A DNA stretch of 64,000 bases from a virus (IMGVR_UViG_3300022173_000041:1-64000); one strand, 5' to 3'; shown: positions 32,651 to 53,709, numbered from the stretch's first letter. Notes: generated by a model from the letters alone, not told the origin. Program-made: numbers and translations.

Positions 32651-32938
32651 TCAAAACGGAATGTCGTCGTCCATATCCGCGTTGGGCTTTGGTTGAGGTA
32701 CATTTGGGGTCGGACGCTTGAATTTGCTAGCCCCACCCCCACCACCACCGCCATCTATTTTCTCTTGGCCGCGCTTATCCTCTGAGATTTGTAGATATTG
32801 GTTTCCTGCGGCAGAAGTCTTCTCCCAGATCGAGATAGCGGTCTTGACGCCATCGATCTCAATCACGCCAGAATAGACAGGCCCATTCTGAGCTGTCTTT
32901 GCGAATAGCGCTCCGCTTACGCGATAGTTACCCGGCAT
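32651..32938 (-). CDS. Single-stranded DNA-binding protein-like
   Basis: OB-like short core plus acidic DMDDDIPF tail, next to ERF. Confidence 0.7.
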   Translation of the reverse strand: MPGNYRVSGALFAKTAQNGPVYSGVIEIDGVKTAISIWEKTSAAGNQYLQISEDKRGQEKIDGGGGGGGASKFKRPTPNVPQPKPNADMDDDIPF

Positions 32939-33776
32939 TTACATTCTCCAGTTTCGGCAACTCGTTGATGGCCTTTGTCATTGAGGCATTGAGATTGGAC
33001 GAAATCTTCGGCGCCGCCTTTTGCAACTCATCAAGAGCTAGCGCGTTCTTTCGAACCCACTCCCGCCCGATAGCATCGTTCTTGCTCGCCTTTACATAGG
33101 CGATGAGGATTTTACCGAAATCCACCCAGTCGCTACCGGTACCGTCTGCCGTCAGGTTCACAGGAACCTGATATGGAGCAATATCCTTAACCTGCGCCGA
33201 TGGCTGGACATTGGTGGTGATGACATCGGGCTTTGGAGATACTGGCTTGCGGTCAACTGCCTGTTCCACCGCATTCCCGTCAGCGACATTGGCGTCATCG
33301 TCTTCCTCGGCTGCGATACCCAAGAGGCTCGTCAGCGAGTACCGCCGCATGAAGGTCAGCGCAGACCCGAATTGCTGGTTGCTACCGCCTTCCACGATCA
33401 GCGGCACCTGACAGGCCAGCCACTGCCCTGAGGAGTGCATCAGGCGCGTATCCAGAATGTACGTCCCCTGATCGTCCTTCATGATCTGAGTGAACCAGAG
33501 GCCATTGCTGGTAAGCGGACCACGGATGATATCGATGATGTGATCCAGCGTAGCGTATTTGAAGGAATACGAAGTCTTGCTTTGGTCGCGCGGCGATACC
33601 TTGACGGTACGATTGCGCTCTGGCGCCTTGATCTCTGACTGGGCCATAGCGAGTGCGGAGACCAACTCAGCGATCTCTTCGCTTCGAGTTGTATCAGTCC
33701 AGCGGGGTGATACGGATTGATCCATTTTTGGCTCGCTTGATTTGTAAGAAGTGTCCGTAGATGCGTCTTGCGTCAT
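32928..33776 (-). CDS. erf: ERF-family ssDNA annealing protein
   Basis: KYATLDHII...GSALTFMRRYSLTSLLGIAAEEDDDAN; start may be at 33725. Confidence 0.85.
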   Translation of the reverse strand: MTQDASTDTSYKSSEPKMDQSVSPRWTDTTRSEEIAELVSALAMAQSEIKAPERNRTVKVSPRDQSKTSYSFKYATLDHIIDIIRGPLTSNGLWFTQIMKDDQGTYILDTRLMHSSGQWLACQVPLIVEGGSNQQFGSALTFMRRYSLTSLLGIAAEEDDDANVADGNAVEQAVDRKPVSPKPDVITTNVQPSAQVKDIAPYQVPVNLTADGTGSDWVDFGKILIAYVKASKNDAIGREWVRKNALALDELQKAAPKISSNLNASMTKAINELPKLENVNAG

Positions 33777-34494
33777 GTGGCATCATTTCCTTTAGGGCAG
33801 CCTGTGCTTCATCGAAGTCCTTGGCTCCCTTCTTGTTGGCAATCCATTGTGACGCCATTGCGGCGTAATGGTTGTTTCCTGAGAAGTTTACCTCAATCAT
33901 TTTGTCATGAGGTAGGTACACTGGCGCCGGTTCTATCACAACGGGCTCAGTCATATCCCAGACGTGGGTCATGAACCTGTTGGCTCTGGCCATCAGCTCG
34001 TCTGCGTAGTCTCTGTTGTAGTTGATGTATTCGATGTATGGTTCGGCGGCGCCAGCAATAATGGAGATGGCGCACTGCTTTGTTGCGGTGCATTCCATTT
34101 GCCAATGCATCTGCGGCATATAGCGCTGAATGATTGTATCAGTCTTCTCCCATCCACCAACGTGCTTAGTCTCCACAGGACACGCCAGCACATTATCGAA
34201 GCCATCAAGAGTAGCAGCGGCCCACCCATAATCAGGATGAACCACAACTGCCCCTCGGTTAACGAGTATGTTACCTGTCTTCTTCTCGTACCAGTCAAGG
34301 TTTAGTTGCTCCGTGGTTTCGCCAAGACGCACAGGCCAATTGTCTGAGAAGTCTGGCTCGACATAATCAGGACTACCAATCATCTCGCGCCAGAGATTGA
34401 GAATGCGATCCTTGTCGCCACTGACCAATGAGCCAATGGCGCTTGCGGTTAGCTTCCCTTCTCTGGCGGTCTTTTGTTCAGGAGTAAGAGCCAC
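33694..34494 (-). CDS. YqaJ/lambda-exonuclease-like recombinase nuclease
   Basis: REGKLTASAI...AATLDG...VETKH...YMPQMHWQM. Confidence 0.85.
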   Translation of the reverse strand: MALTPEQKTAREGKLTASAIGSLVSGDKDRILNLWREMIGSPDYVEPDFSDNWPVRLGETTEQLNLDWYEKKTGNILVNRGAVVVHPDYGWAAATLDGFDNVLACPVETKHVGGWEKTDTIIQRYMPQMHWQMECTATKQCAISIIAGAAEPYIEYINYNRDYADELMARANRFMTHVWDMTEPVVIEPAPVYLPHDKMIEVNFSGNNHYAAMASQWIANKKGAKDFDEAQAALKEMMPHDARRIYGHFLQIKRAKNGSIRITPLD

Positions 34495-43239: not shown

Positions 43240-43746
43240 ATGGGCGTCCTTCGCAACATCAACGATGAGCGGTTTTGTCAGTTAGTGGTCTCGGGCATGG
43301 AACCGGGAGAGGCTTACAAGACGGTCGGGTATACTGCCAAGAACCCGGGTTATGCAGCCAGCCGCAAGATGGCCAAGCCCGTGGTTAGGAAGCGCATGGA
43401 GGAGCTTCTGGACGTTGGCGCCAGAAAGGCCATGCTAAGCCGCTCCATGATCCTACAGCGCATTTATGAGGACTGGGAGCTATCCCGAAAGCTGGGCCAG
43501 ATGGCCAGCGCCATCTCTGCTGGCAAGCTTATGGGCATGGAGCTGCATAAGATGTTCATTGAGCGCAAGGAGATTGGCGGGCCGGGAGACTTCGACGCCA
43601 AGAGCCCTGAAGAGCTTCTTGAGTATATCAAGAAGGAACTAGGGGAGTTGGGGATGGACGCGAAGGACGTAACCAAGACACTTGGTATAAATCTGGATGA
43701 TCATCAAGCGCTTACACTAATACCGCCAGAGAAATCCAAGGTCTAA
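43240..43746 (+). CDS. terS: Terminase small subunit-like protein
   Basis: LRNINDERFCQLVVSG...EAYKTVGY...ASRKM...VRKRMEEL; ERKEIGGPGDF. Confidence 0.7.
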   Translation: MGVLRNINDERFCQLVVSGMEPGEAYKTVGYTAKNPGYAASRKMAKPVVRKRMEELLDVGARKAMLSRSMILQRIYEDWELSRKLGQMASAISAGKLMGMELHKMFIERKEIGGPGDFDAKSPEELLEYIKKELGELGMDAKDVTKTLGINLDDHQALTLIPPEKSKV

Positions 43747-44063
43747 CTTTGTATAAATTCAATTGCTTTGGTTATTTCGTCTTCTTCGAAATCAATATTC
43801 CTGAGTTCTCTCAGTCTGGTTGGGTCAATATCACCACTTTCCCAACGTGGAATGAGTTCGCCAAACTCATTGATTGATGAGCTGGTGGAAAACCAAGTCT
43901 GTATCCTTCCTGTTGGATGATCATAATCCTTTGTCACGCAGAGTTTGCCGCGAAGAGTATTATGCCAAGTTTGTTTCTGGTTAATCCAGCTTTGCATATT
44001 CTCCTGACCGGTCAAATTCCAGACACGATCAGGATCAAGCAAGAGTTCATTTTTGTAACCCAT
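43743..44063 (-). CDS. Small protein with C-terminal acidic tag (subtype 2)
   Basis: Ends FEEDEITKAIEFIQS. Confidence 0.65.
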   Translation of the reverse strand: MGYKNELLLDPDRVWNLTGQENMQSWINQKQTWHNTLRGKLCVTKDYDHPTGRIQTWFSTSSSINEFGELIPRWESGDIDPTRLRELRNIDFEEDEITKAIEFIQS

Positions 44064-44457
44064 TTCTCTCCTCCTCTATTTCATCCATGATGATCTGAGC
44101 CAGCTCAATGTCGTCACCATCTAGCTCACCTTCCATGTCGATCATGGTATTGGAACTAAGGTACGGCGCTACATACAAATCCCATTCTTCTTGGGACGTA
44201 ATTCTATACTGCCAGAGAGGAAGCCCAGATATCATTCCGTGTGATATGTGGATATCCCTAACTGAGCCATCAACGAAATGTCTTACCATCTTTGCAAACC
44301 AACCCCTTTTGGTTTGGTAGAAAGATATTCCTACAAGTCCCTGATCATCACCATTGGCGCCCCAATGTTCCTCGCACCGACGAATTAAGTAGTCGGAAGG
44401 CTCAAGGTCCCATATGCGCTCACTATCTGTACCAAACTCCTCTATATTTAACATCAT
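44047..44457 (-). CDS. Small protein with C-terminal acidic tag (subtype 2)
   Basis: Ends LDGDDIELAQIIMDEIEEERNGLQK. Confidence 0.65.
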   Translation of the reverse strand: MMLNIEEFGTDSERIWDLEPSDYLIRRCEEHWGANGDDQGLVGISFYQTKRGWFAKMVRHFVDGSVRDIHISHGMISGLPLWQYRITSQEEWDLYVAPYLSSNTMIDMEGELDGDDIELAQIIMDEIEEERNGLQK

Positions 44458-44475
44458 AAGTTTCTCCCTCGTTGT

Positions 44476-44514
44476 CGCTTATCACTAGCGCTCGAAAGCG
44501 CTAGGACATAAGCG
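44476..44514 (-). repeat. Intergenic hairpin element, copy 1
   Basis: CGCTTAT-GTC-stem(TTCG loop)-TG-ATAAGCG on the minus strand. Confidence 0.65.
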
Positions 44515-44772
44515 TCAAGTCTTTAGCTTAGCCTCAATTCGATCCAGTTCTGCTCTGGCACCAGCAATGCTGTAGTGATTGCTGTACTGGCTGAAACCAC
44601 GCTGGATAATGCTGCATACGAACAGCACTCCAGCGATCCACTGCAACGCAGAGCTATCCAAAAGATAACCAATGTAGCAGGAGGCTATCAGACATCCGAA
44701 AGTGAAAAAGTCGCAGACTATACTTTCTGCGACTGTCTCATGCAGGATCATGATCTTAATTTTCTCACTCAT
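44515..44772 (-). CDS. Small membrane protein
   Basis: RBS GGAGGGAAAA; two hydrophobic segments. Confidence 0.6.
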   Translation of the reverse strand: MSEKIKIMILHETVAESIVCDFFTFGCLIASCYIGYLLDSSALQWIAGVLFVCSIIQRGFSQYSNHYSIAGARAELDRIEAKLKT

Positions 44773-44782
44773 TTTTCCCTCC

Positions 44783-44831
44783 TTGAGCAAAGGCGCTCAA
44801 TGCTAGGGCTCGTAAGCCCTAGTGTTTGAAC
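44783..44831 (-). repeat. Intergenic hairpin element, copy 2
   Basis: GTTCAA-ACA-stem-CA-TTGAGC..GCTCAA. Confidence 0.7.
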
Positions 44832-44914
44832 GTCTGCGACGAATGCGGGGCGGCAAGTTCGCAAGACCGTGAGGATTTATATGCTGTTCTCACCGCCCCT
44901 ACCTCGCGCGAGGA

Positions 44915-46192
44915 TTACTTGTAGGGAACAGTCCTGCCATATGGCGCCTTAGCGCCACTGCCAGCCCAGTCCACCCACACCACCGGAAAGTCAGGCTGTG
45001 GCCCAAAGCTTGAGGTATACATATCGGTCAGGAAGATACAGCCGATAACGTCTTCCATCTTGCCGATTTCTGTCATGGCGGAATTGAAATCGGTTCCACC
45101 ACCACCACCAGCATTCCAGCCAATGATGTCCTCTTCTGACTTCGCTTCCAGAGTGTTCTGGATTTGTGTATCGACCGAAATCAGAGTGACGTGCGATACC
45201 AAGTCCTGATTGAGAAGGCTTGCAGCCTCTTCGCACATTTCTTGGATCATCTTCTGGCTAACTGAGCCAGACACGTCCAGACACATCACAAGCTTGTATA
45301 CGTTATCGTTGCCATAACCGGGCATGTATTCGTCATTGCCCAGTCGGCGTCGATTAGGACGGGTCCACGTTCGCGTTGCCTTAGACTTGGCATCGCGAGA
45401 CATATCGCGGATAAGGTCCTTCCAGTCGATCTTCTCCTTGGGGAAAAGATCACCGATCAGACGCTGGAGATTGCCCGGCAATGTACCGGGAGGAGACTTC
45501 TCCAGAGCGCTTGCGACAGTTCGCTTCCACTGCCGGTCGGCAGCTTCGCGTTCTTCGGGCGTGGTTTCGAACATGGTGCCGGGAGCTTCCCCATCACCTT
45601 CTTCGTCGCCATTGCCCTCGCCTTCACCCTCACCATCCTGATCTTCTTCTTCGTCACCTTCACCATCCTGAGGCTGGCCTTTCCCCTTTCCTTTCTGGGG
45701 TTTGCCTTTGCCTTTCTCGGACTTTCCTTTGCCGCCGTCCTTGCCTTCCTTGTCTTCCTTTTTCTGCTGCTTTTCCTCCTGCTGTTGCAGGATTTCATAG
45801 ACAGCTTCGGCAGAAAGTTCGGCAAGCTTGTTATCGCGCAATGCATCACGTGGCATTGGGAAATAGTCTTCGACCACCTTGTTGACAGGGAAGTCGCAGG
45901 CTTCATTCCACATCTTATTGTCGCGATATCGGCGCCGGGCAGGATGCATCATAGCGCAATGCAGGACGGTATGCAGAAGCACACCTTCCATGTATTTATC
46001 GTTCGCGGCATCGTCCACATATGCGGGATTGAAGAAGATATCGACCCCATCGGACCATACCGTCTTGTGAGATTTACTCTCAACAAGATTTGCGCCAAAC
46101 AGAATGGATGCAAAGAACGGATTGCGCTTTGCTACACGTTCCCGTGCAGTAAGCATTCGTCGCATTGCAGTTGGTTTCGTTATTCCAAACAT
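44915..46192 (-). CDS. DUF2201-like peptidase-fold plus vWA protein
   Basis: PFFASILF...LLHTVLHCAMMH...WNEACDFPVN; acidic linker; MIDAS LDVSGSV; GGGGTDF. Confidence 0.8.
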   Translation of the reverse strand: MFGITKPTAMRRMLTARERVAKRNPFFASILFGANLVESKSHKTVWSDGVDIFFNPAYVDDAANDKYMEGVLLHTVLHCAMMHPARRRYRDNKMWNEACDFPVNKVVEDYFPMPRDALRDNKLAELSAEAVYEILQQQEEKQQKKEDKEGKDGGKGKSEKGKGKPQKGKGKGQPQDGEGDEEEDQDGEGEGEGNGDEEGDGEAPGTMFETTPEEREAADRQWKRTVASALEKSPPGTLPGNLQRLIGDLFPKEKIDWKDLIRDMSRDAKSKATRTWTRPNRRRLGNDEYMPGYGNDNVYKLVMCLDVSGSVSQKMIQEMCEEAASLLNQDLVSHVTLISVDTQIQNTLEAKSEEDIIGWNAGGGGGTDFNSAMTEIGKMEDVIGCIFLTDMYTSSFGPQPDFPVVWVDWAGSGAKAPYGRTVPYK

Positions 46193-46210
46193 GAATTCTC
46201 CCTCTTGTTG

Positions 46211-46272
46211 TGAAGCAGATGTATTGGCGCTTCGTGCTGGGGGCGTGGGAAATCCGCCCCCAGTGTCGAAAC
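46211..46272 (-). repeat. Intergenic hairpin element, copy 3
   Basis: GTTTCG-ACA-stem-CA-CGAAGC..GCTTCA. Confidence 0.7.
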
Positions 46273-46286
46273 GTCAAGAGGTACCG

Positions 46287-47333
46287 TCAGACACCCTTGG
46301 ACGCCTGCCCTTCGATCAGCAAAGCGGCGAGCGCTTCGTTGGTCTTCAGGGACTTGTCGCGACCCATGGCATCGGTAACGCACATGGAGGCAACATCCGG
46401 TGACATACGTCCCAGATACTTTGCGAACGCGGCGGCATTCTTGGCCGTCAGGTTGCGCGCGATGGTACCAGCCATCAGATACTGGAAGTGAGCGTCACCG
46501 GGCATTTTGGCCTTCATCGGGTCAGCCAAGATGTCTGCGATCTTCGGCAGACCAGCCGCAAGCCGGTCCAAGAAAGCCGCAAACTGCCTTGAGAAGCCCT
46601 CACCCAGAATAGCCAGCGCGGCATTCTCCAAGACACCCTTCAGTGCCTTCGGGTCCATACCAGACGCCTCGGTGTCGCGCAGAACCTTGTTGAAGTTCTC
46701 CAGCGAGCGGGGCGTAGGAAAGGACGGATGATTGACATCGACCTTGTGGATCAGTTCAGGACGCAACTGGAGAAACGCAATCAGGCGCTTGTCCCAGCCC
46801 CACAGCTTGGTCTTTTCAGTGAAGCCGATTTCATCGACCTCGACCGTAATGTGGGCCATGCGGTTTTCCAGAGGCTTCAACATCTTGTTGTCGCCGCCTC
46901 CATCCTCACGGGTGTTTGAGCCCAGAATGATCCGGTTTTTCTTCGGAAGCGGATACCCACCGCACGAACGGTCCAGAACCAACTGATAAGACATCTGCTG
47001 GAGCTGTACGTTCGCATGACCGAATTCGTCAAAGAACATGACGTGCATTTCGTCATCGTCCTTCGGAACGAACGCGGGCCGGGTCCAATGGGTAGACATT
47101 TCCTCGCGGTTGATCAGCGGCATACCGGTGCCGTCCACAATATCCTTTGTAGAAAGCCGGATGTCGTGCAACTGAGATTTGGCGCCAAAGTCCGTTCGGA
47201 TTTTGGTCATGATCTCAGAGTTGATCACCGCTGACTTGCCGACGCCGGTCGGTCCCTTGATCATGACCGGAATATCCGCATGGATCAGGGGATAGACAAC
47301 GTTAGCAAGTTGGGTAATTTTGCACTTCAACAT
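46287..47333 (-). CDS. MoxR-like AAA+ ATPase
   Basis: GPTGVGKS; FFDEF; LGSNTRED; PLENRM; PTPRS. Confidence 0.85.
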   Translation of the reverse strand: MLKCKITQLANVVYPLIHADIPVMIKGPTGVGKSAVINSEIMTKIRTDFGAKSQLHDIRLSTKDIVDGTGMPLINREEMSTHWTRPAFVPKDDDEMHVMFFDEFGHANVQLQQMSYQLVLDRSCGGYPLPKKNRIILGSNTREDGGGDNKMLKPLENRMAHITVEVDEIGFTEKTKLWGWDKRLIAFLQLRPELIHKVDVNHPSFPTPRSLENFNKVLRDTEASGMDPKALKGVLENAALAILGEGFSRQFAAFLDRLAAGLPKIADILADPMKAKMPGDAHFQYLMAGTIARNLTAKNAAAFAKYLGRMSPDVASMCVTDAMGRDKSLKTNEALAALLIEGQASKGV

Positions 47334-47403
47334 AAATAGGTCTCCCTCTTAGAGCAGGATTGCTCAATCATGGACAGAAGTTACTCTGCCCATGGGTCAA
47401 CAA

Positions 47404-47499
47404 TCAGTGGCCTTCATCTGGTAGTTTGGCTAGACGCGATATAGAAGCGATTAAACATACCGCTACCCATAAAGCGTATAGGATAAAGAATATTTCCAA
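47404..47499 (-). CDS. 31-aa membrane micropeptide (not in ORF track)
   Basis: RBS AAGAGAGGGAAA then TTG; MEIFFILYALWVAVCLIASISRLAKLPDEGH. Confidence 0.5.
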   Translation of the reverse strand: MEIFFILYALWVAVCLIASISRLAKLPDEGH

Positions 47500-47573
47500 T
47501 TTCCCTCTCTTACTCGCGCCTTTGTAGAAAGCACGATTATGGGGCGTTTTTTAGGCGCCCCATAGGCTTGCTC

Positions 47574-48497
47574 TCAGAAGTCGGCGTATTCGCCTGCATC
47601 TGCAACCATATCAGCCACTTGCAAGTCCAAGTGATCTAGCTCAATTGTCTTTGCAAGTATTTTCTTGCCCATTCTGATATAGTCCTTGCGGTCAATCTCA
47701 GAATTTCGCAATTGATCGGCGGTTATCCATGACAGTCTGGCAATTTGGTTAGCCATCTCATTGATCTCTTTATTGTTGGTCACGTTCATGGCAAAGAGTA
47801 TCGTGGATATCTCACTTAGATTGATGAGAAGACTGTCACGAATGATTTTGCCGTCTGCCTTGGTTTTGAAAGCTTCAAGGCGTTCGACAAAGTTTTCGAC
47901 CATGCCTCTGGCACGTTGGACCGCATCATGAGCGGCGCCTTTTAGGCGCGTTTCAATCTCCAGCCTCATTGTGTCAGTGGCTCTTTTGACCGCATCTTCT
48001 GCAATGTTTGCTACGAAGTTGGAAGTTTGCGGAATAGGCCAATAGGTCAACTTGTAGGAAAACATCTCGCGAGCCCTCTTGATTGAGGGATATTCCTGAC
48101 GATCAAACAAATCGCCAAGTTCTCGCTCACTGTCTGCGACAAGCCCGGGATAGACCTGTAGATATTCTTCCCATGCTGCACGCAATTCCGCTTCAGCATC
48201 GATCATTTTCGTGCGGAACATTTCTTCCAAGTCAGTTGGCAGCAATCGTGACTTATCGTCACCCCATGGCATGGTGTACTTATACAGTACCTCACGAACA
48301 CGCTGGGACGCGGCCACAACCGCTTTGACCTTTGGCTGTTTACGGTCAATCAAGAACTTGCTGGCTTTGGCGCGATTGGTATTAAGCTTGAACTTTCTTT
48401 CCACATATCCTGTGGCTGTCTTATCGCGCCTTTCACCTAGCAAGCCGCCGTTAACAATGGTTACAGATACAAGCATTGCGGATTTGGCTAGGTCCAT
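47574..48497 (-). CDS. DUF3150-like protein
   Basis: AMLVSVTI...KFLID...YKYTMPWGDDKSRLLP...LGDLFDRQEYPS; linked to MoxR/vWA. Confidence 0.7.
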   Translation of the reverse strand: MDLAKSAMLVSVTIVNGGLLGERRDKTATGYVERKFKLNTNRAKASKFLIDRKQPKVKAVVAASQRVREVLYKYTMPWGDDKSRLLPTDLEEMFRTKMIDAEAELRAAWEEYLQVYPGLVADSERELGDLFDRQEYPSIKRAREMFSYKLTYWPIPQTSNFVANIAEDAVKRATDTMRLEIETRLKGAAHDAVQRARGMVENFVERLEAFKTKADGKIIRDSLLINLSEISTILFAMNVTNNKEINEMANQIARLSWITADQLRNSEIDRKDYIRMGKKILAKTIELDHLDLQVADMVADAGEYADF

Positions 48498-48511
48498 TTG
48501 TATTCTCCCTC

Positions 48512-48561
48512 TTGAGCGTAGGCGCTCATCACTGAGGCTTGTAAGCCTCAGGACATGAACG
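48512..48561 (-). repeat. Intergenic hairpin element, copy 4
   Basis: CGTTCAT-GTC-stem-TG-ATGAGCG..CGCTCAA. Confidence 0.7.
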
Positions 48562-48726
48562 TCATATTTGAGCAGTCATTGCGCCTGCTACGGCGGCAAA
48601 GAATACTGTGCTGTAGTATTCTCGTTGATGGGTCCATCCAAATAGGTAGTCAAAACCTAACCAGACAACCATTACAAAGCCGCCCCAGAACAAGCTTCTG
48701 CCTAGTCTTTCAAAGAACGGCGCCAT
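48562..48726 (-). CDS. Small membrane protein
   Basis: TAATG overlap; two hydrophobic segments. Confidence 0.55.
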   Translation of the reverse strand: MAPFFERLGRSLFWGGFVMVVWLGFDYLFGWTHQREYYSTVFFAAVAGAMTAQI

Positions 48727-49127
48727 TAGTGCAACGTTCGCGCTGCTACTGGGGATTTCTTTTTCCCGCATTTGCAGATTGCGTCGTGGCACTGGAGCGC
48801 GATGTCTCCAGCGTCTTCCTCATCCAGATTGCCCAGTTGGGCAGCCATGGCCATGAATGCAGGTATTGCATCATGGGGAAGCTTGAGGCTTTCCAGCAAG
48901 CGCTTTGATTTGGCGATTGCGTAATTGCCTACCTTGGTAGGAGCGTCACCGATTTCCTTGGTTTCTGCAAAGAACGGCATGATAACAAGGAAGCGATAGA
49001 AACTCTCATCAGTGGCGCCCCAGATAGGGAACAACTCTGCGAGACAACGCTTTGAAAACGTCACGCCATTAAGGCGAAACGCATGCGCTGTTTCGTGAAT
49101 ATCAACCTTGATTGCACTTGTAGTCAT
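48726..49127 (-). CDS. Hypothetical protein
   Basis: RBS AAGAGGGAG. Confidence 0.6.
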   Translation of the reverse strand: MTTSAIKVDIHETAHAFRLNGVTFSKRCLAELFPIWGATDESFYRFLVIMPFFAETKEIGDAPTKVGNYAIAKSKRLLESLKLPHDAIPAFMAMAAQLGNLDEEDAGDIALQCHDAICKCGKKKSPVAARTLH

Positions 49128-49142
49128 GATATCTCCCTCTTA

Positions 49143-49190
49143 TTGAGCAAAATGCTCACCATTACAGCCCGTAGGCTGTAAGCCGTGAAC
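49143..49190 (-). repeat. Intergenic hairpin element, copy 5
   Basis: GTTCAC-GGC-stem-TG-GTGAGC..GCTCAA. Confidence 0.7.
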
Positions 49191-49191
49191 A

Positions 49192-49629
49192 CTAGCGAAA
49201 CTTTGAGCGGCCCTTGATGAGCTTCTCAATGGTTTCTTTGGCGTAGTATGGATCAAGTAACCCATAATAACCGTTGAGCAGTGTGGCCCGCTTCAGGTAG
49301 CGAGTAGAGAATTCAACTCCGAAATAGTCAGAGTGAATTCGCTTCTCTGGATTTGTTTCTGACCATGTTGGGTCAATGATAAATCCATTTTCATCAACGA
49401 CCCAAGCATGCTGCAAAGCCACGCCATGAACGCACGCATAGCCTTCAACGTATTTGAGCTTACTATTGTCGATAGCCATTAGCGTTGCATTCATGAAGCA
49501 TAACCCCGCTTCCATGCGCTTGCCCTCATACGTCTTTGGGCCAATTTCAAATGGCCTTCCGTGTTTGAGGACAAAACGATCTATAGGGGAATGCTGTGCA
49601 GTGAACGCAAGATATTCTTTCGTGTTCAT
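49192..49629 (-). CDS. Conserved phage protein (Cys/His transglutaminase-like pattern)
   Basis: GLCFMNA...YVEGYA...QHAWVVD...IDPTW...YFGV. Confidence 0.7.
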
Positions 49630-49795
49630 CTATGGATTGCTCCAATCTTGATGAGTTCATTCGCGCGCCGTCCATACATACCCTGTAGAGACCACGCTAG
49701 GCCGGTATCGACAAGCTTCTGGAAGAACGTTTCTTCACGTTCCTCGTGTCCATCTCGCCGTTTTCCCAAGCCATGATATCGTCAATGTCAGGCAT
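49626..49795 (-). pseudogene. Frameshifted small conserved phage protein
   Basis: 170 nt span; [16 protein letters not shown] then, one base out of frame, [40 protein letters not shown]. Confidence 0.7.
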
Positions 49796-49994
49796 CGGCC
49801 TTCTCCTCAGGAACGCCACTTGCTTCAAGGAAGCGAGCGCGATCAAAGTTGGAGTTGGTCAATTCCAGTGCATCAGCGAATGCGCGTGCAACAACTGGGG
49901 TTAAGCCTTCCATATCTTCATATGTAGAAAGCTTCGCTAGGACATCCGCGATTATTTCGAAATGCCCGCGCTGCATATTTACACTTCTTGCCAT
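49788..49994 (-). CDS. Conserved phage small protein
   Basis: HFEIIADVL...NSNFDRARFLEASG. Confidence 0.7.
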   Translation of the reverse strand: MARSVNMQRGHFEIIADVLAKLSTYEDMEGLTPVVARAFADALELTNSNFDRARFLEASGVPEEKADA

Positions 49995-50012
49995 AATGGT
50001 TTTCCCTCTCAT

Positions 50013-50067
50013 TGAAGCATAAGCGCTTCGTGCTGGCGCCGGGATTATTCGGCGCCAGTGTCGAAAT
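50013..50067 (-). repeat. Intergenic hairpin element, copy 6
   Basis: TTTCG-ACA-stem-CA-CGAAGC..GCTTCA. Confidence 0.7.
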
Positions 50068-50069
50068 GC

Positions 50070-50240
50070 TTACTTGTGATTTGGTTCCCAAAGCCAAATC
50101 AGGTTTGTTAGAGCATTCAAAATTCCAGCCTCAATCATAAGACTGGGATTATGAATGCTGATAATCGTGGTCGATGTTATTCCAATCGTAACGAGCAACT
50201 GGAATGCACGATGCTTGCGAACAACCATGAGAAAGCGCAT
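50070..50240 (-). CDS. Small membrane protein (56 aa, not in ORF track)
   Basis: MRFLMVVRKHRAFQLLVTIGI...LIWLWEPNHK. Confidence 0.5.
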   Translation of the reverse strand: MRFLMVVRKHRAFQLLVTIGITSTTIISIHNPSLMIEAGILNALTNLIWLWEPNHK

Positions 50241-50450
50241 TCATGCCTCCCCACCATCGCCTAGCACGACCATTGCAATACCCATGATGAGCAGAATTCC
50301 GCCCATACCAGAGTAAAAGCCGTGGCCCTCGTAAAACACCCCGCCGAAATAGGCGAGATGAGCATAGCTGTGGCCTTCATGAAGCCACTTATGGGCATGG
50401 TGCCGATAGGCCCTGATCCTTGCCCGGGCGCGATCAATGAGCATGCTCAT
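50241..50450 (-). CDS. His-rich small membrane protein
   Basis: HHAHKWLHEGHSYAHL plus a TM segment. Confidence 0.55.
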   Translation of the reverse strand: MSMLIDRARARIRAYRHHAHKWLHEGHSYAHLAYFGGVFYEGHGFYSGMGGILLIMGIAMVVLGDGGEA

Positions 50451-50536
50451 TTGATAGCCTCCAGAACAAACATCAGGACAATGAAAGCGAACCATGCGGG
50501 CGCAAGACGCCAGCTCAAGTCCATCAAATCATCCAT
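50447..50536 (-). CDS. 29-aa membrane micropeptide (not in ORF track)
   Basis: RBS AAGAGGGAAA; MDDLMDLSWRLAPAWFAFIVLMFVLEAIK; ATGA overlap. Confidence 0.5.
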   Translation of the reverse strand: MDDLMDLSWRLAPAWFAFIVLMFVLEAIK

Positions 50537-50696
50537 GACAAGTTTCCCTCTTGTGGAGCACTAGCGCTCCTTGATGCAATCCAGAATGTTACAAGTCCTC
50601 GCCTGCCATTTCGTTGGCCATACTGAGAAACTAGAAAAATCAGCATGTTGACTATGCACATTGCGTCTAGTTGACACTGGATTGCACTTAGGAAAG

Positions 50697-50918
50697 CTAT
50701 GCGGCGCGACCGTTCGCTAAAACGGTGCGGCGCGTGGTATCGCCTTCCAAAGCTTCGATTTCCGCTGCAAACTTTTCAGCCTGCAATTCAGCCTCTGATA
50801 CAGGCCGGTATCCATTGGGCGCACCATTGACAATGTTGCGTCGGGATACACGCGCGCCGTGTTCTGCCTGTTGAGCATTCACAACGTCACGATATGAAGC
50901 ATTGGTATTGACGGTCAT
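50697..50918 (-). CDS. Hypothetical protein
   Basis: RBS AGAGGGAAAA. Confidence 0.6.
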   Translation of the reverse strand: MTVNTNASYRDVVNAQQAEHGARVSRRNIVNGAPNGYRPVSEAELQAEKFAAEIEALEGDTTRRTVLANGRAA

Positions 50919-50934
50919 AACGGTTTTCCCTCTA

Positions 50935-50984
50935 TGAAGCTTAATTGCTTCATGCTGGGGCTTATTAGGCCCCAGTGTTGAAAC
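50935..50984 (-). repeat. Intergenic hairpin element, copy 7
   Basis: GTTTCA-ACA-stem-CA-TGAAGC..GCTTCA. Confidence 0.7.
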
Positions 50985-50986
50985 AA

Positions 50987-51256
50987 TCAGATTGCAGCGC
51001 TAGTCCCTGTGACTTCAGGGGCATTAGCTTTTGCAAGCTTTCTGACCTTTGCGCGTGCGGTGTTGAGCATGCTGAAAATCCGTCGTTTGGTCTCAGCATG
51101 TCCAACTGCATTTGCGTGCGGTAGCGCCAATTCGAGCGCTAGCTTTGACGCGCGCCAATCTTCATTGGCTGCCAGACGATCAGCCGTAGAAAGATGAATT
51201 TGCATCGTCATGCGGTGACTGTCTCGCATTGCGTCAGTGAGCAGTGGCTTGGACAT
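50987..51256 (-). CDS. Hypothetical helical protein
   Basis: RBS AGAGAGGGAAA. Confidence 0.6.
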   Translation of the reverse strand: MSKPLLTDAMRDSHRMTMQIHLSTADRLAANEDWRASKLALELALPHANAVGHAETKRRIFSMLNTARAKVRKLAKANAPEVTGTSAAI

Positions 51257-51273
51257 GATATTTCCCTCTCTAG

Positions 51274-51322
51274 TGAAGCGTAAATGCTTCGTGCAGCGCT
51301 ATTGCTAGCGCTGTGTCGAAAC
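51274..51322 (-). repeat. Intergenic hairpin element, copy 8
   Basis: GTTTCG-ACA-stem-CA-CGAAGC..GCTTCA. Confidence 0.7.
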
Positions 51323-51324
51323 AT

Positions 51325-51516
51325 TCAGGAATGAGTGTAACCGTCCAGCTCAATTCCAAGCCACATGCCTGCCCATTTAATCATGGCGTAGTCGCGCCCG
51401 ATTTGAACAGACTTGCGGAATTCGCGGTATGAAATGCGCTTATCGTTTTCGATGATAGGCGCACGGTCAAACACTCGTTTGAGCGCTTGTTGCTGGGGTT
51501 TGTTGAGGGTTGCCAT
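51325..51516 (-). CDS. Conserved phage small protein
   Basis: Ends WAGMWLGIELDGYTHS. Confidence 0.7.
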   Translation of the reverse strand: MATLNKPQQQALKRVFDRAPIIENDKRISYREFRKSVQIGRDYAMIKWAGMWLGIELDGYTHS

Positions 51517-51611
51517 TAGTGCAACGCCATAACCAGAGCAACGAGAGCGCCCAGATAGAGCGCCAGCGCAAACCAGTGCGTGCGTTCGGTGGGTATCTCT
51601 GAGATTTTCAT
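51516..51611 (-). CDS. 31-aa membrane micropeptide
   Basis: MKISEIPTERTHWFALALYLGALVALVMALH; RBS AGAGGGG. Confidence 0.5.
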   Translation of the reverse strand: MKISEIPTERTHWFALALYLGALVALVMALH

Positions 51612-51624
51612 GGTTTTCCCCTCT

Positions 51625-51677
51625 TGAAGCGTAAATGCTTCGTTCTGGCGCCCATAATTGAGCGCCAGCGTCGAAAC
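51625..51677 (-). repeat. Intergenic hairpin element, copy 9
   Basis: GTTTCG-ACG-stem-AA-CGAAGC..GCTTCA. Confidence 0.7.
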
Positions 51678-51678
51678 A

Positions 51679-51786
51679 TTAGCTTGGGAGATTGTTACCA
51701 ATGCGCGGATTAGTTGGCTGATTGAGCCAATAAAGCACGCGATTAGTCGCCTTAATGCGGCGTTTGGTTTGTTCCTTGCGCGTCAT
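51679..51786 (-). CDS. 35-aa basic peptide (not in ORF track)
   Basis: MTRKEQTKRRIKATNRVLYWLNQPTNPRIGNNLPS. Confidence 0.4.
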   Translation of the reverse strand: MTRKEQTKRRIKATNRVLYWLNQPTNPRIGNNLPS

Positions 51787-51790
51787 GGTA

Positions 51791-51976
51791 TCAAACCGCG
51801 TAGTCTGACGCGGTAAGCTGCCATGCATTCCGCAAGGCGTTGGGCTGACGGTATACCGTCACGCTACCGTGACGGTGCAACACTTCCTTAGCGCCGTATG
51901 TCCTGACGGGATTGTGAAACGTCCTGCCATGATCAGAAGCGCTAGAAAGGTTCGCTAAGCCGTTGTCCGTTGTCAT
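51791..51976 (-). CDS. Hypothetical protein
   Basis: RBS AAGAGGGAAA. Confidence 0.55.
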   Translation of the reverse strand: MTTDNGLANLSSASDHGRTFHNPVRTYGAKEVLHRHGSVTVYRQPNALRNAWQLTASDYAV

Positions 51977-52059
51977 GATAAGTTTCCCTCTTATCGGCAA
52001 AATTGCCTAATAGCTTGCCCTGCTAGCCCCTTGTGAGGGCTAATCAGAGCAAGCCAATT

Positions 52060-53460
52060 GGTAGTTTAGAAGAGGAAAAGGAAATGAGGGGCCGCTAAGC
52101 CCCTCCCATGTTATGCCAAGTGCAATGCTTGATAATCATCCTAGACTATCAACGAAGCGATGGTTTGCCCCGCCCGGCTTACAAGCTATTGTCTGGTTAG
52201 CGTCACGCCTTAAGCGCTAAGCCTGCCATATCGTCGCCTTGCGGCTGATAATCAGGAGAAGGTCGCGCCCGCCATGGTTACTTTCGGACCGCTACACTGG
52301 GACGCTATGCCCATATCGCGAAAGGCTTGATGCCTGTCCTATCCTAGCCACGGTCCAGAGTTGGCACGTTGCTTGCGAAATTATGGTAAGTCTCAAACGG
52401 TTATCTGTCCCATTTGTCCGGTCCTCCGGATATCAGTAGCCACTCGCTATGGCCCCGATTTGCCAGCGCCTTGTCAGGCTGGCGGCGTATTCTCAGAAGC
52501 GTCTATCTCAGTACCTCAGTTCGTTTCAGTCCTCAGAACATAAGGCTTGGTACCAATCCAGTTAGTGGGTCTAACGCATGGCTGATATGCATTCCCGCAT
52601 ACCTCCATTGCCAAGCCTCTATCCATGCCAAATGAAAAACCGCAACGTTCCCCAATGGATAGACGCGCTCCACAAGCCCCTAGGAAGCCCATAGAGAGGG
52701 ATAAACAAGACAGACTGACCTAGATCGCCCTAAAGAAATATCGCCCTCACAGCCTTACGCCCGCCATATGCACGATACCGGGCAGATGGACCATAATCCT
52801 AGCGATAGGAATACAAGGCAGAAAGGCTAGGAAAACCGCCTCTCGTCGCACGTTCCCCTGATACCCACATGCGAACCATTCGCATGTGGAACAGCCCCTA
52901 GAACGCGATACGACGCGCGCCCATGAGCGATCATGTCGGCGCTACCTAGCATCGCCCGAAATGCCCAACTCACCCATGGCCACGCCACGCAATGTTGCAC
53001 CGCAACACCTATGCACCTAGCGCATAGCTCTGCCTAGATTGTGCCACAGTTCCAATGCGTTAGACGCATAGCTCTGGTATGCATAAACCGCATGGCTACC
53101 TGCGAACCACTCGCAACAAGGACCATGCCAAGCCCCCCTCCCCCCATGCATAGCTGGTATGCGTATATGCATGGCTCATCCACATGCGAACCATTCGCAT
53201 CAAGCATCGTGCCACTAGCTATGCACTGCACGCACTGCACCTATGCGCTCCACGCATGGCTAGGTGCTAATGAGAATCATTCGCAAGAAGGGACCCGACC
53301 GGGTGGGGGGCCGCTATCGGAGAGGCCGGGCCGGGGCTGAGCCTTCTCTGCCCTCTCTCCTTTATGAGAAATTTTAGATCAACCCCCATTGTATTGTAAC
53401 GCCATGTAACACATCTTGTAACGCAACGTAACGCAAACTGTAACGCGGTGTAACAGGGGT
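52060..53460. other. Long non-coding divergent control / candidate genome-terminus region
   Basis: No credible CDS; gene strands diverge from here; repeated TGCGAACCATTCGCA hairpins; GC-rich tract at 53290-53345. Confidence 0.6.
53395..53454. repeat. Six helically phased TGTAAC repeats
   Basis: Copies at 53395, 53405, 53417, 53427 (CGTAAC), 53439 and 53449; spacing 10/12/10/12/10. Confidence 0.75.
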
Positions 53461-53469
53461 TTAGAGGTA

Positions 53470-53709
53470 ATGGATTACGAGAAGGAAGTGGAGCTTATAG
53501 CTCAGCTACGAAGGGATATGCCTCGTAATGGGGTGGTGATGTCGTTGTGTGATTTTGCGGAAAAATGTTTGGGGTCGAAACCCAAGATGTCTGAGGTTGA
53601 GCGGCGCCAGAAGAATGCTGAGCGGGTGAAGCGGTGGCGACGGAGTAAGGGTCTTGTCGGGGGAGAGGTTATTGAGATTTCTACAAATCCGTTTGAGGGG
53701 GACACGTAA
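53470..53709 (+). CDS. Hypothetical protein with basic helix
   Basis: RBS AGAGG; ERRQKNAERVKRWRR. Confidence 0.6.
   Translation: MDYEKEVELIAQLRRDMPRNGVVMSLCDFAEKCLGSKPKMSEVERRQKNAERVKRWRRSKGLVGGEVIEISTNPFEGDT

Follow-up and report, generated by a model that had tools for sequence, protein, structure and literature searches.

A family of repeated RNA hairpins was identified in the virus record IMGVR_UViG_3300022173_000041, of which positions 1-64,000 (the window) are the first 64 kb of a complete 73,677-bp record carrying direct terminal repeats. The source is an uncultured phage of ~74 kb, taken as a phage of alphaproteobacteria. All copies lie in one leftward operon, in the intervals between a stop codon and the Shine-Dalgarno (SD) sequence of the next gene, and comparative sequence analysis indicates that the element is a real, undescribed and clade-wide structured RNA family. 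Because of the selection on the sense strand and the fixed register to the stop codon and SD, an RNA element appears to be the simplest reading. As to its function, we put at somewhat less than an even chance the proposal that each copy would be an RNase III-type processing site, similar to those of the T7 early region, at which refolding would cap the downstream fragment.

Structure, copies and distribution of the RNA element

An earlier note on the window had described a family of RNA-like elements preceding leftward genes. Both strands of the whole genome were scanned for a 6-nt arm, a bulge of 2-4 nt, a stem of at least 7 bp, a bulge of 2-3 nt and a complementary arm, and the structures followed by a ribosome binding site (RBS) were found almost exclusively on the minus strand, from 52052 to 44477. 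A covariance model, named R1, was built on a MAFFT alignment of nine window copies. Scan and model agreed on the family, with nine strong copies scoring 54-71 bits. No further site above 24 bits was found by R1 in the 73,677 bp, and the only two weak sites were at 47343-47407 and 50547-50593. Besides the nine strong copies, the operon (52058-44464) contains a degenerate one and a divergent one at its head, all in the sense of the genes. They are listed below from the operon head; X and Y denote the two arms of the lower helix, and X' the downstream arm that can pair with Y instead.

51986..52058, minus strand: divergent copy at the operon head, preceding the first gene and lacking an upstream open reading frame (ORF), found by the structural scan; a 12+8 bp hairpin followed by a GGCAA/TTGCC hairpin, -41.9 kcal/mol, z-score -6.4
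51618..51683, minus strand: element copy, 69.2 bits; TAA stop, lower helix GTTTCG/CGAAGC, ACG/AA loop, upper stem, X' GCTTC, SD
51267..51328, minus strand: element copy, 66.2 bits; TGA stop in the lower helix, ACA/CA loop, X' GCTTC; fold -27.8 kcal/mol, z-score -5.2
50928..50990, minus strand: element copy, 68.8 bits; X/Y/X' GTTTCA/TGAAGC/GCTTCA
50006..50073, minus strand: element copy, 65.6 bits; X/Y/X' ATTTCG/CGAAGC/GCTTC
49136..49196, minus strand: element copy, 59.5 bits; X/Y/X' GTTCAC/GTGAGC/GCTCA, GGC/TG loop
48505..48566, minus strand: element copy, 67.1 bits; X/Y/X' GTTCAT/ATGAGC/GCTCA, GTC/TG loop; the two folds are nearly isoenergetic
47343..47407, minus strand: degenerate copy upstream of the AAA ATPase gene, 20.8 bits; fold -28 kcal/mol, z-score -3.1
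46201..46278, minus strand: element copy upstream of the vWA/DUF2201 gene, 58.3 bits, z-score -5.4; the true stop is 14 nt before arm X, and X' is kept
44776..44837, minus strand: element copy, 71.3 bits; X/Y/X' GTTCAA/TTGAGC/GCTCAA; no upstream ORF ends there, and X' is kept
44464..44519, minus strand: element copy without X', 54.3 bits; X/Y CGCTTA/TAAGCG

The X/Y arm pairs given in the earlier note were correct, as was the placement of each copy between a stop codon and an RBS. Its internal loop types were recovered as ACA/CA in five copies, GTC/TG in two, and ACG/AA and GGC/TG in one each, and the Y:X' alternative hairpin that it had proposed was present in eight of the nine copies, being absent at 44464-44519. 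Its lower arm of 6-7 nt had to be extended: in minimum-energy folds the lower helix has 9-11 bp, since its 5' strand takes up the stop codon and its 3' strand the loop nucleotides of the Y:X' hairpin.

In its ground state the element is a bipartite hairpin with a median of 19 bp (15-25 bp in most copies). The lower helix starts at the upstream stop codon and includes it. Above it lies an asymmetric 3x2 internal loop, the commonest loop type, found in most copies, and then an upper stem of 8-11 bp that is GC-rich and free to vary in sequence, closed by an apical loop of mostly 4-9 nt. The helix ends by the internal loop are conserved (UUUCG/CGAAG and CUG/CAG). Several internal-loop types occur side by side in each genome, and the first 5' base and the second 3' base of the loop covary as A..A or G..G. 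The structures are very stable, with z-scores from -3.6 to -5.4.

Independent evidence for covariation was provided by the plain MAFFT alignment of the nine window copies, in which RNAalifold predicted 18 pairs; 15 of these had at least one copy changed on both sides with the pair kept, in agreement with the within-genome covariation claimed earlier. Across 83 distinct copies, 96.8% of the cells were standard pairs, vs 34-50% when the partner columns were slid, and double changes were counted in 396 cells, which include every one of the nine pairs in the upper stem and six of nine in the lower stem, in an alignment (A3) that was fitted to the model and whose pairing counts are inflated towards the structure. 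G.U cells outnumbered A.C cells by 122 to 13, or by 49 to 13 when the conserved U.G wobble at columns 8:88, kept in 73 of the 83 copies, was left aside, and R1 scored ~45 bits lower on the reverse strand. By these asymmetries, the fold is selected on the mRNA-sense strand.

The family extends to other uncultured phages. One exact pattern taken from the helix ends retrieved 33 loci on 30 IMG/VR contigs, and R1 gave 97 matches (83 distinct) in 29 of these loci, on 26 related IMG/VR contigs, with up to 11 matches per locus. A second IMG/VR pattern added one more true relative, L158, with seven copies; most of its other matches were chance. Bacterial genomes were also scanned by pattern, where almost every match was due to chance, and among the 80 listed of 109 stretches, R1 confirmed copies (E value 1e-4 or better) at four loci in three alphaproteobacterial genomes, namely Bradyrhizobium sp. 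SRL28, a Bradyrhizobium metagenome-assembled genome (MAG) and an alphaproteobacterial MAG; a fifth locus was marginal. The SRL28 locus (L150 9041-9770; NZ_JAHEAG010000001, about 607040-607770) has three copies in a row between small genes whose products have signal-peptide-like N-termini. It belongs to a cultured bacterium, and protein similarity to the phage was undetectable.

The covariance-model search, a check that the earlier note had proposed, recovered copies in relatives, and no Rfam 15 family matched the elements at the gathering threshold or at E values up to 1, in the window and 12 related loci; the only match was a separate RNA, Atu_At1. A known Rfam family, which the earlier note had named as grounds for refutation, was therefore not found for the elements themselves. 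Searching with one element by blastn gave chance matches only. With more than 100 copies on ~27 uncultured phage contigs, a few more in alphaproteobacterial genomes, and covariation strong enough for an Rfam entry, the family marks gene boundaries and a hyperplastic accessory region in phages that lack cultured relatives.

Gene register and a second fold

The element keeps a close register with the genes on both sides. Of 92 distinct copies, 81 had an ORF of at least 30 codons ending at their 5' edge, and it was very rare for an ORF to continue into the hairpin. Downstream, 75 of the 92 were followed by an SD and a start codon, usually 8-12 nt past the end of the model, and the SD was always just outside the structure.

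The second fold, the Y:X' hairpin, has 5-7 bp and leaves 2-8 nt between its end and the SD. In 56 of 83 copies, 5 nt exactly complementary to Y were found 4-7 nt downstream. X' tracked the class of Y, GAAGC occurring with GCTTC, AGAGC with GCTCT and GGAGC with GCTCC, and there were no cross-class matches. The stretch from Y to the SD folded into a hairpin of -3 kcal/mol or better in 67 of the 70 copies having a downstream SD and start codon (median -7.0 kcal/mol; median z-score -4.4 vs shuffles), and this hairpin started at nucleotide 1-2 of Y. The alternative hairpin was also kept in 16 of 17 copies with a stop codon 5-57 nt away and in all four copies without an upstream ORF.

The long hairpin beats the two-hairpin state by a median of 4 kcal/mol (range -11 to +1.4), which means that the second fold depends on the removal or occupation of arm X. 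When arm X was masked, the predicted probability of the SD being unpaired increased from 0.50 to 0.60 and pairing between X' and the SD decreased from 0.19 to 0.045; accessibility of the SD went up in 40 copies and down in six, and the window copies showed no consistent change. The candidate role of X' as a strong anti-SD was rejected, the predicted effect on SD accessibility being only 0.1.

Cleavage and refolding among the competing readings

In the proposal that we favour, the element would be a cis-acting module of a polycistronic mRNA with two mutually exclusive folds. A host RNase III-type, double-strand-specific endonuclease would cut the element at its internal loop, in the manner of the early sites of phage T7; no RNase III gene was found in the phage genome. 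The upstream cistron would be left ending in the upper hairpin, with its 3' end shielded, and the freed Y arm would pair with X', so that the downstream cistron would start with a hairpin preceded by 1-3 unpaired nucleotides, its 5' end shielded and its SD open. If the cut falls in the loop, the refolded hairpin would begin 1-2 nt away from it. The operon would in this way be split into separately stabilised cistrons with expression independent of the neighbouring sequence, and as a side effect the short conserved arms could offer homology for Erf/RecE single-strand annealing and the exchange of the flanked genes.

More of the design would be explained by cleavage at the internal loop than by a ribosome trigger, namely the length of ~19 bp, the conserved asymmetric loop, the long upper stem and a refolded hairpin 1-3 nt from the new 5' end. 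The idealised substrate of RNase III has 22 bp, about two helical turns, and where the enzyme cuts only one strand, at an internal loop, a stabilising hairpin is left at the 3' end (PMC3867540). The T7 early sites (R0.3, R0.5, R1, R1.1 and R1.3) are likewise repeated intercistronic hairpins within one phage operon. R1.1 has an asymmetric 4/5-nt internal loop (PMC6121014), and when R0.3 to R1.3 were folded with the same tool, each had an upper stem of 9-13 bp over an internal loop and a lower stem, ~two helical turns in total, as in the elements, the cleavage products of which would also bear protective terminal hairpins. The elements are distinguished from the T7 sites by the built-in second arm X' for refolding into a 5' hairpin, and by their alphaproteobacterial hosts. 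We infer that the element is a variant of the intercistronic processing or stability signals and cassette junctions known from phages.

Several observations weigh against cleavage by RNase III. R1 found nothing in the T7 early region, where its best sense-strand match near a T7 site reached 2.8 bits (E value 8.5), and the likeness is therefore architectural only. The T7-like processing site suggested in the earlier note is consistent with the architecture and the intercistronic position. The loop of the elements is smaller than that of the T7 sites (3x2 vs 4x5), and their lower stem is stronger and contains the stop codon. The pairs adjacent to the loop (UUUCG/CGAAG, CUG/CAG and the U.G wobble) show stronger conservation than the known requirements of bacterial RNase III would call for. 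RNase III of S. meliloti cuts R1.1 at atypical sites and prefers longer double-stranded RNA substrates (PMC6121014). In 55 of the 81 copies with an ORF ending at the element, the stop codon falls on one of two adjacent offsets (model positions 2-4 or 3-5), and such a fixed register counts against a processing site because a site of this kind does not require it. The inflated pairing counts of the fitted alignment, given above, belong here as well.

The same stop-codon register speaks for ribosome-actuated translational coupling, in which a terminating ribosome would melt arm X and Y would capture the X' that weakly masks the SD, so that downstream translation would need upstream translation. 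The scarcity of ORFs entering the hairpin and the gain in SD accessibility on masking arm X fit this account, which we nevertheless consider unlikely. The predicted effect is small and absent in the window copies; X' and the SD can form only ~4 bp, including a wobble, and in many copies the spacer does not have the length for it. Copies with their closest upstream stop 14-40 nt off, or with none, retain the alternative hairpin, as does the operon head copy, and coupling leaves no role for the conserved 3x2 loop or the long upper stem. The translation-coupling switch proposed earlier is favoured by the stop codon within the lower helix and weakened by the small SD effect and by the X' hairpin kept without a nearby stop. 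Slightly less probable is a passive insulator or stabiliser acting without cleavage, by which the hairpins would be barriers to exonucleases and their self-contained folds would keep each SD alike whatever the neighbouring gene. It accords with the very stable structures, with an SD that is always just outside and with elements that accompany shuffled genes, but uncut RNA favours the long fold by ~4 kcal/mol, so that a near-universal, covarying X' would rarely be used, and the conserved geometry of the internal loop would be unexplained. The conserved helix ends around the loop, the fixed wobble at columns 8:88 and the covarying loop bases could instead be read by a dedicated phage or host protein, with the element as a translational operator or as the site of a Cas6/Csy4-style hairpin endoribonuclease; a site for a phage RNA-binding protein was among the options in the earlier note. 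We think this improbable: several loop types occur in every genome, which disfavours a strictly sequence-specific reader, no RNA-binding or nuclease domain was found among the scanned operon proteins, and copies are present in the Bradyrhizobium locus without a detectable protein shared with the phage.

The gene order and content of relatives differ exactly at the elements, and genes for an Erf-like annealing protein and a RecE-like exonuclease are present in the phage. Both facts would suit a mainly DNA-level element, either a folded single-strand recombination site like integron attC or a homology patch for cassette exchange, and the elements are laid out much like attC, with a basal helix, an unpaired spacer and a variable top. 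Such a reading is nonetheless very improbable in our judgement. No tyrosine recombinase (PF00589) was found in the complete genome by a search that detected the family in 14 of 14 control genomes, only the sense strand shows the specific pairing, the constant register with the stop codon and SD, together with a covarying X', indicates mRNA, and homology alone cannot explain the compensatory changes in the upper stem. We give hardly any weight to transcription attenuators or terminators, like the stem-loop part of the promoter-early stem-loops (PeSLs) of T4-type phages. The hairpins are GC-rich and intergenic, and a PeSL stem-loop cut reporter expression as much as a strong terminator (PMC2839356); however, no copy is terminator-like, with a stem followed by a T-run, and eleven terminators in series, with no promoters between the genes, would presumably starve the conserved distal genes.

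The elements also share features with other known systems. PeSLs (PMC2839356, PMC4122927) are also stop-to-start cassettes with a stem-loop and an SD, located among small orphan genes at the boundaries of insertions, deletions and replacements between relatives. In contrast to PeSLs, the elements have no sigma-70 promoter and only ~20 nt from hairpin to SD, their hairpin is bipartite with an alternative fold, and the phages are unrelated. The start-associated sequences (SAS/ESAS) of Cluster K mycobacteriophages share with the elements a conserved asymmetric box at the translation start of some non-structural genes; about half of the SAS boxes follow imperfect inverted repeats whose spacer varies, and the suspected role is one in translation (PMC3203893). 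The ESAS arms are 17-bp repeats conserved in sequence, unlike the elements, which conserve the helix ends only and vary in the upper stem; ESAS are without stop-codon anchoring, and no alternative hairpin has been described for them. Integron attC sites are imperfect palindromes, conserved in structure and variable in sequence, that directly follow the cassette ORF in one orientation, with an unpaired spacer between two helices. The elements differ in that the phage has no integrase and in that they fold on the mRNA-sense strand and are tied to an SD and a start codon.

Several specific candidates were tried and rejected. An integron-like attC is contradicted by the lack of an integrase and by the strand preference, since attC folds as the bottom strand, antisense to the ORFs, vs the G.U excess over A.C in the elements. 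Sigma-70 promoters or intrinsic terminators at the elements were dismissed because no U-tract or T-tract follows the hairpins and promoter matches are not enriched: only one of the nine copies overlaps a weak 9-of-12 sigma-70 match, and the region is poorer in promoter-like sites than its shuffles. N4-type virion-RNA-polymerase hairpin promoters have a stem of 5-7 bp and a 3-nt loop, vs mostly 4-9 nt for the apical loops of the elements, and no giant polymerase ORF was seen, the largest ORF in the window having 1090 aa; a PF00940 search for an RNA polymerase gave no match, and its control likewise gave none. A K-turn reading of the internal loop was discarded by inspection, the flanking pairs covarying as Watson-Crick pairs and the G.A/A.G signature being absent.

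Returning to cleavage and refolding, a broader and doubtful extension is that the element would be a portable punctuation mark. It would end a cistron, be cut or opened by a ribosome, refold to cap both RNA ends and insulate the next RBS, and provide in its arms the swap points for Erf/RecE. If so, it would be an RNA-level counterpart of integron attC joined with a synthetic RiboJ or Csy4 insulator. Cut-and-refold processing, if true, would show a phage standardising the expression of freely exchanged genes and would give operon design in rhizobia and Agrobacterium a small insulator of natural origin; the prediction can be tested directly, since one Bradyrhizobium strain that carries copies is in culture.

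Operon, gene exchange and neighbouring features

The operon that holds every element copy has ~20 mostly small genes around a core trio. The operon and its core genes are as follows.

43743..52058, minus strand: leftward operon, with its core trio encoded by the three genes that follow
47574-48497, minus strand: gene of the 307-aa protein
46287-47333, minus strand: gene of the MoxR-like AAA ATPase
44915-46192, minus strand: gene of the DUF2201 peptidase/vWA protein

When six genomes were compared, the core trio was conserved with an element between each gene pair, and the small genes flanking the trio differed or moved, with elements at those boundaries. The trio is 38-62% identical in the four closest relatives and 24-30% identical in two more distant ones. 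The trio is the fixed core, and the remainder of the operon is fluid. The best relatives of the ATPase are in N4-like phages, and no Pfam or PHROG match was found among the scanned small operon proteins. No cultured close relative of the phage was found by megablast vs phages, and the top match of a virion protein, in a record of an uncultured Caudoviricetes, had only 41% identity.

An Erf-like single-strand annealing protein is encoded beside a RecE-like exonuclease at 32928-34494 (minus strand). This pair would be a recombination system able to use short homologies. Gene exchange at the short conserved arms appears plausible, because elements are found at the boundaries of gene swaps and the Erf-like and RecE-like genes are present. 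The cassette-shuffling junctions anticipated by the earlier note are in this respect supported by synteny, as an evolutionary correlate.

Two intercistronic structures of the operon were found not to belong to the family.

47497..47573, minus strand: a different double hairpin after the stop codon of the 307-aa gene, seen by folding, with no R1 match
50579..50686, minus strand: a homologue of the Atu_At1 small RNA (sRNA; Rfam RF02496), intercistronic, full length, 83.4 bits vs a gathering score of 60, with a short hairpin after it

They correspond to two of the four sites that had been proposed as degenerate copies, namely 47528 (the double hairpin) and 50555 (the Atu_At1 sRNA); the other two were upheld, 47351 as the weak member of 20.8 bits and 51995 as the divergent head copy. 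The core of the Atu_At1 homologue shares 74-80% identity with intergenic stretches, without annotation, from plasmids and chromids of Sinorhizobium, Shinella, Rhizobium and Agrobacterium, which hints at a Rhizobiaceae host and at a phage copy of a host sRNA.

The promoter of the operon was not located. Directly upstream of the head element, at 52086-52105 (minus strand), there is a terminator-like hairpin with a T-rich tail. It lies in a stretch of ~1.4 kb without ORFs (52060-53480) that may be an origin or a regulatory region. This stretch contains the palindrome TGCGAACCATTCGCA four times, at 52869, 53100, 53184 and 53270, with a stem of 6-8 bp, a loop of 3 nt and a spacing of mostly ~85 bp, and three 22-bp tandem repeats with a GTAAC core at 53394-53459. 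Two small inverted repeats, a motif distinct from the main element, carry an SD within their loop: GATAAG-AGGGAAA-CTTATC-ATG at 51974-51996 and ACAAG-AGGGAAA-CTTGT-CATG at 50534-50554, both on the minus strand.

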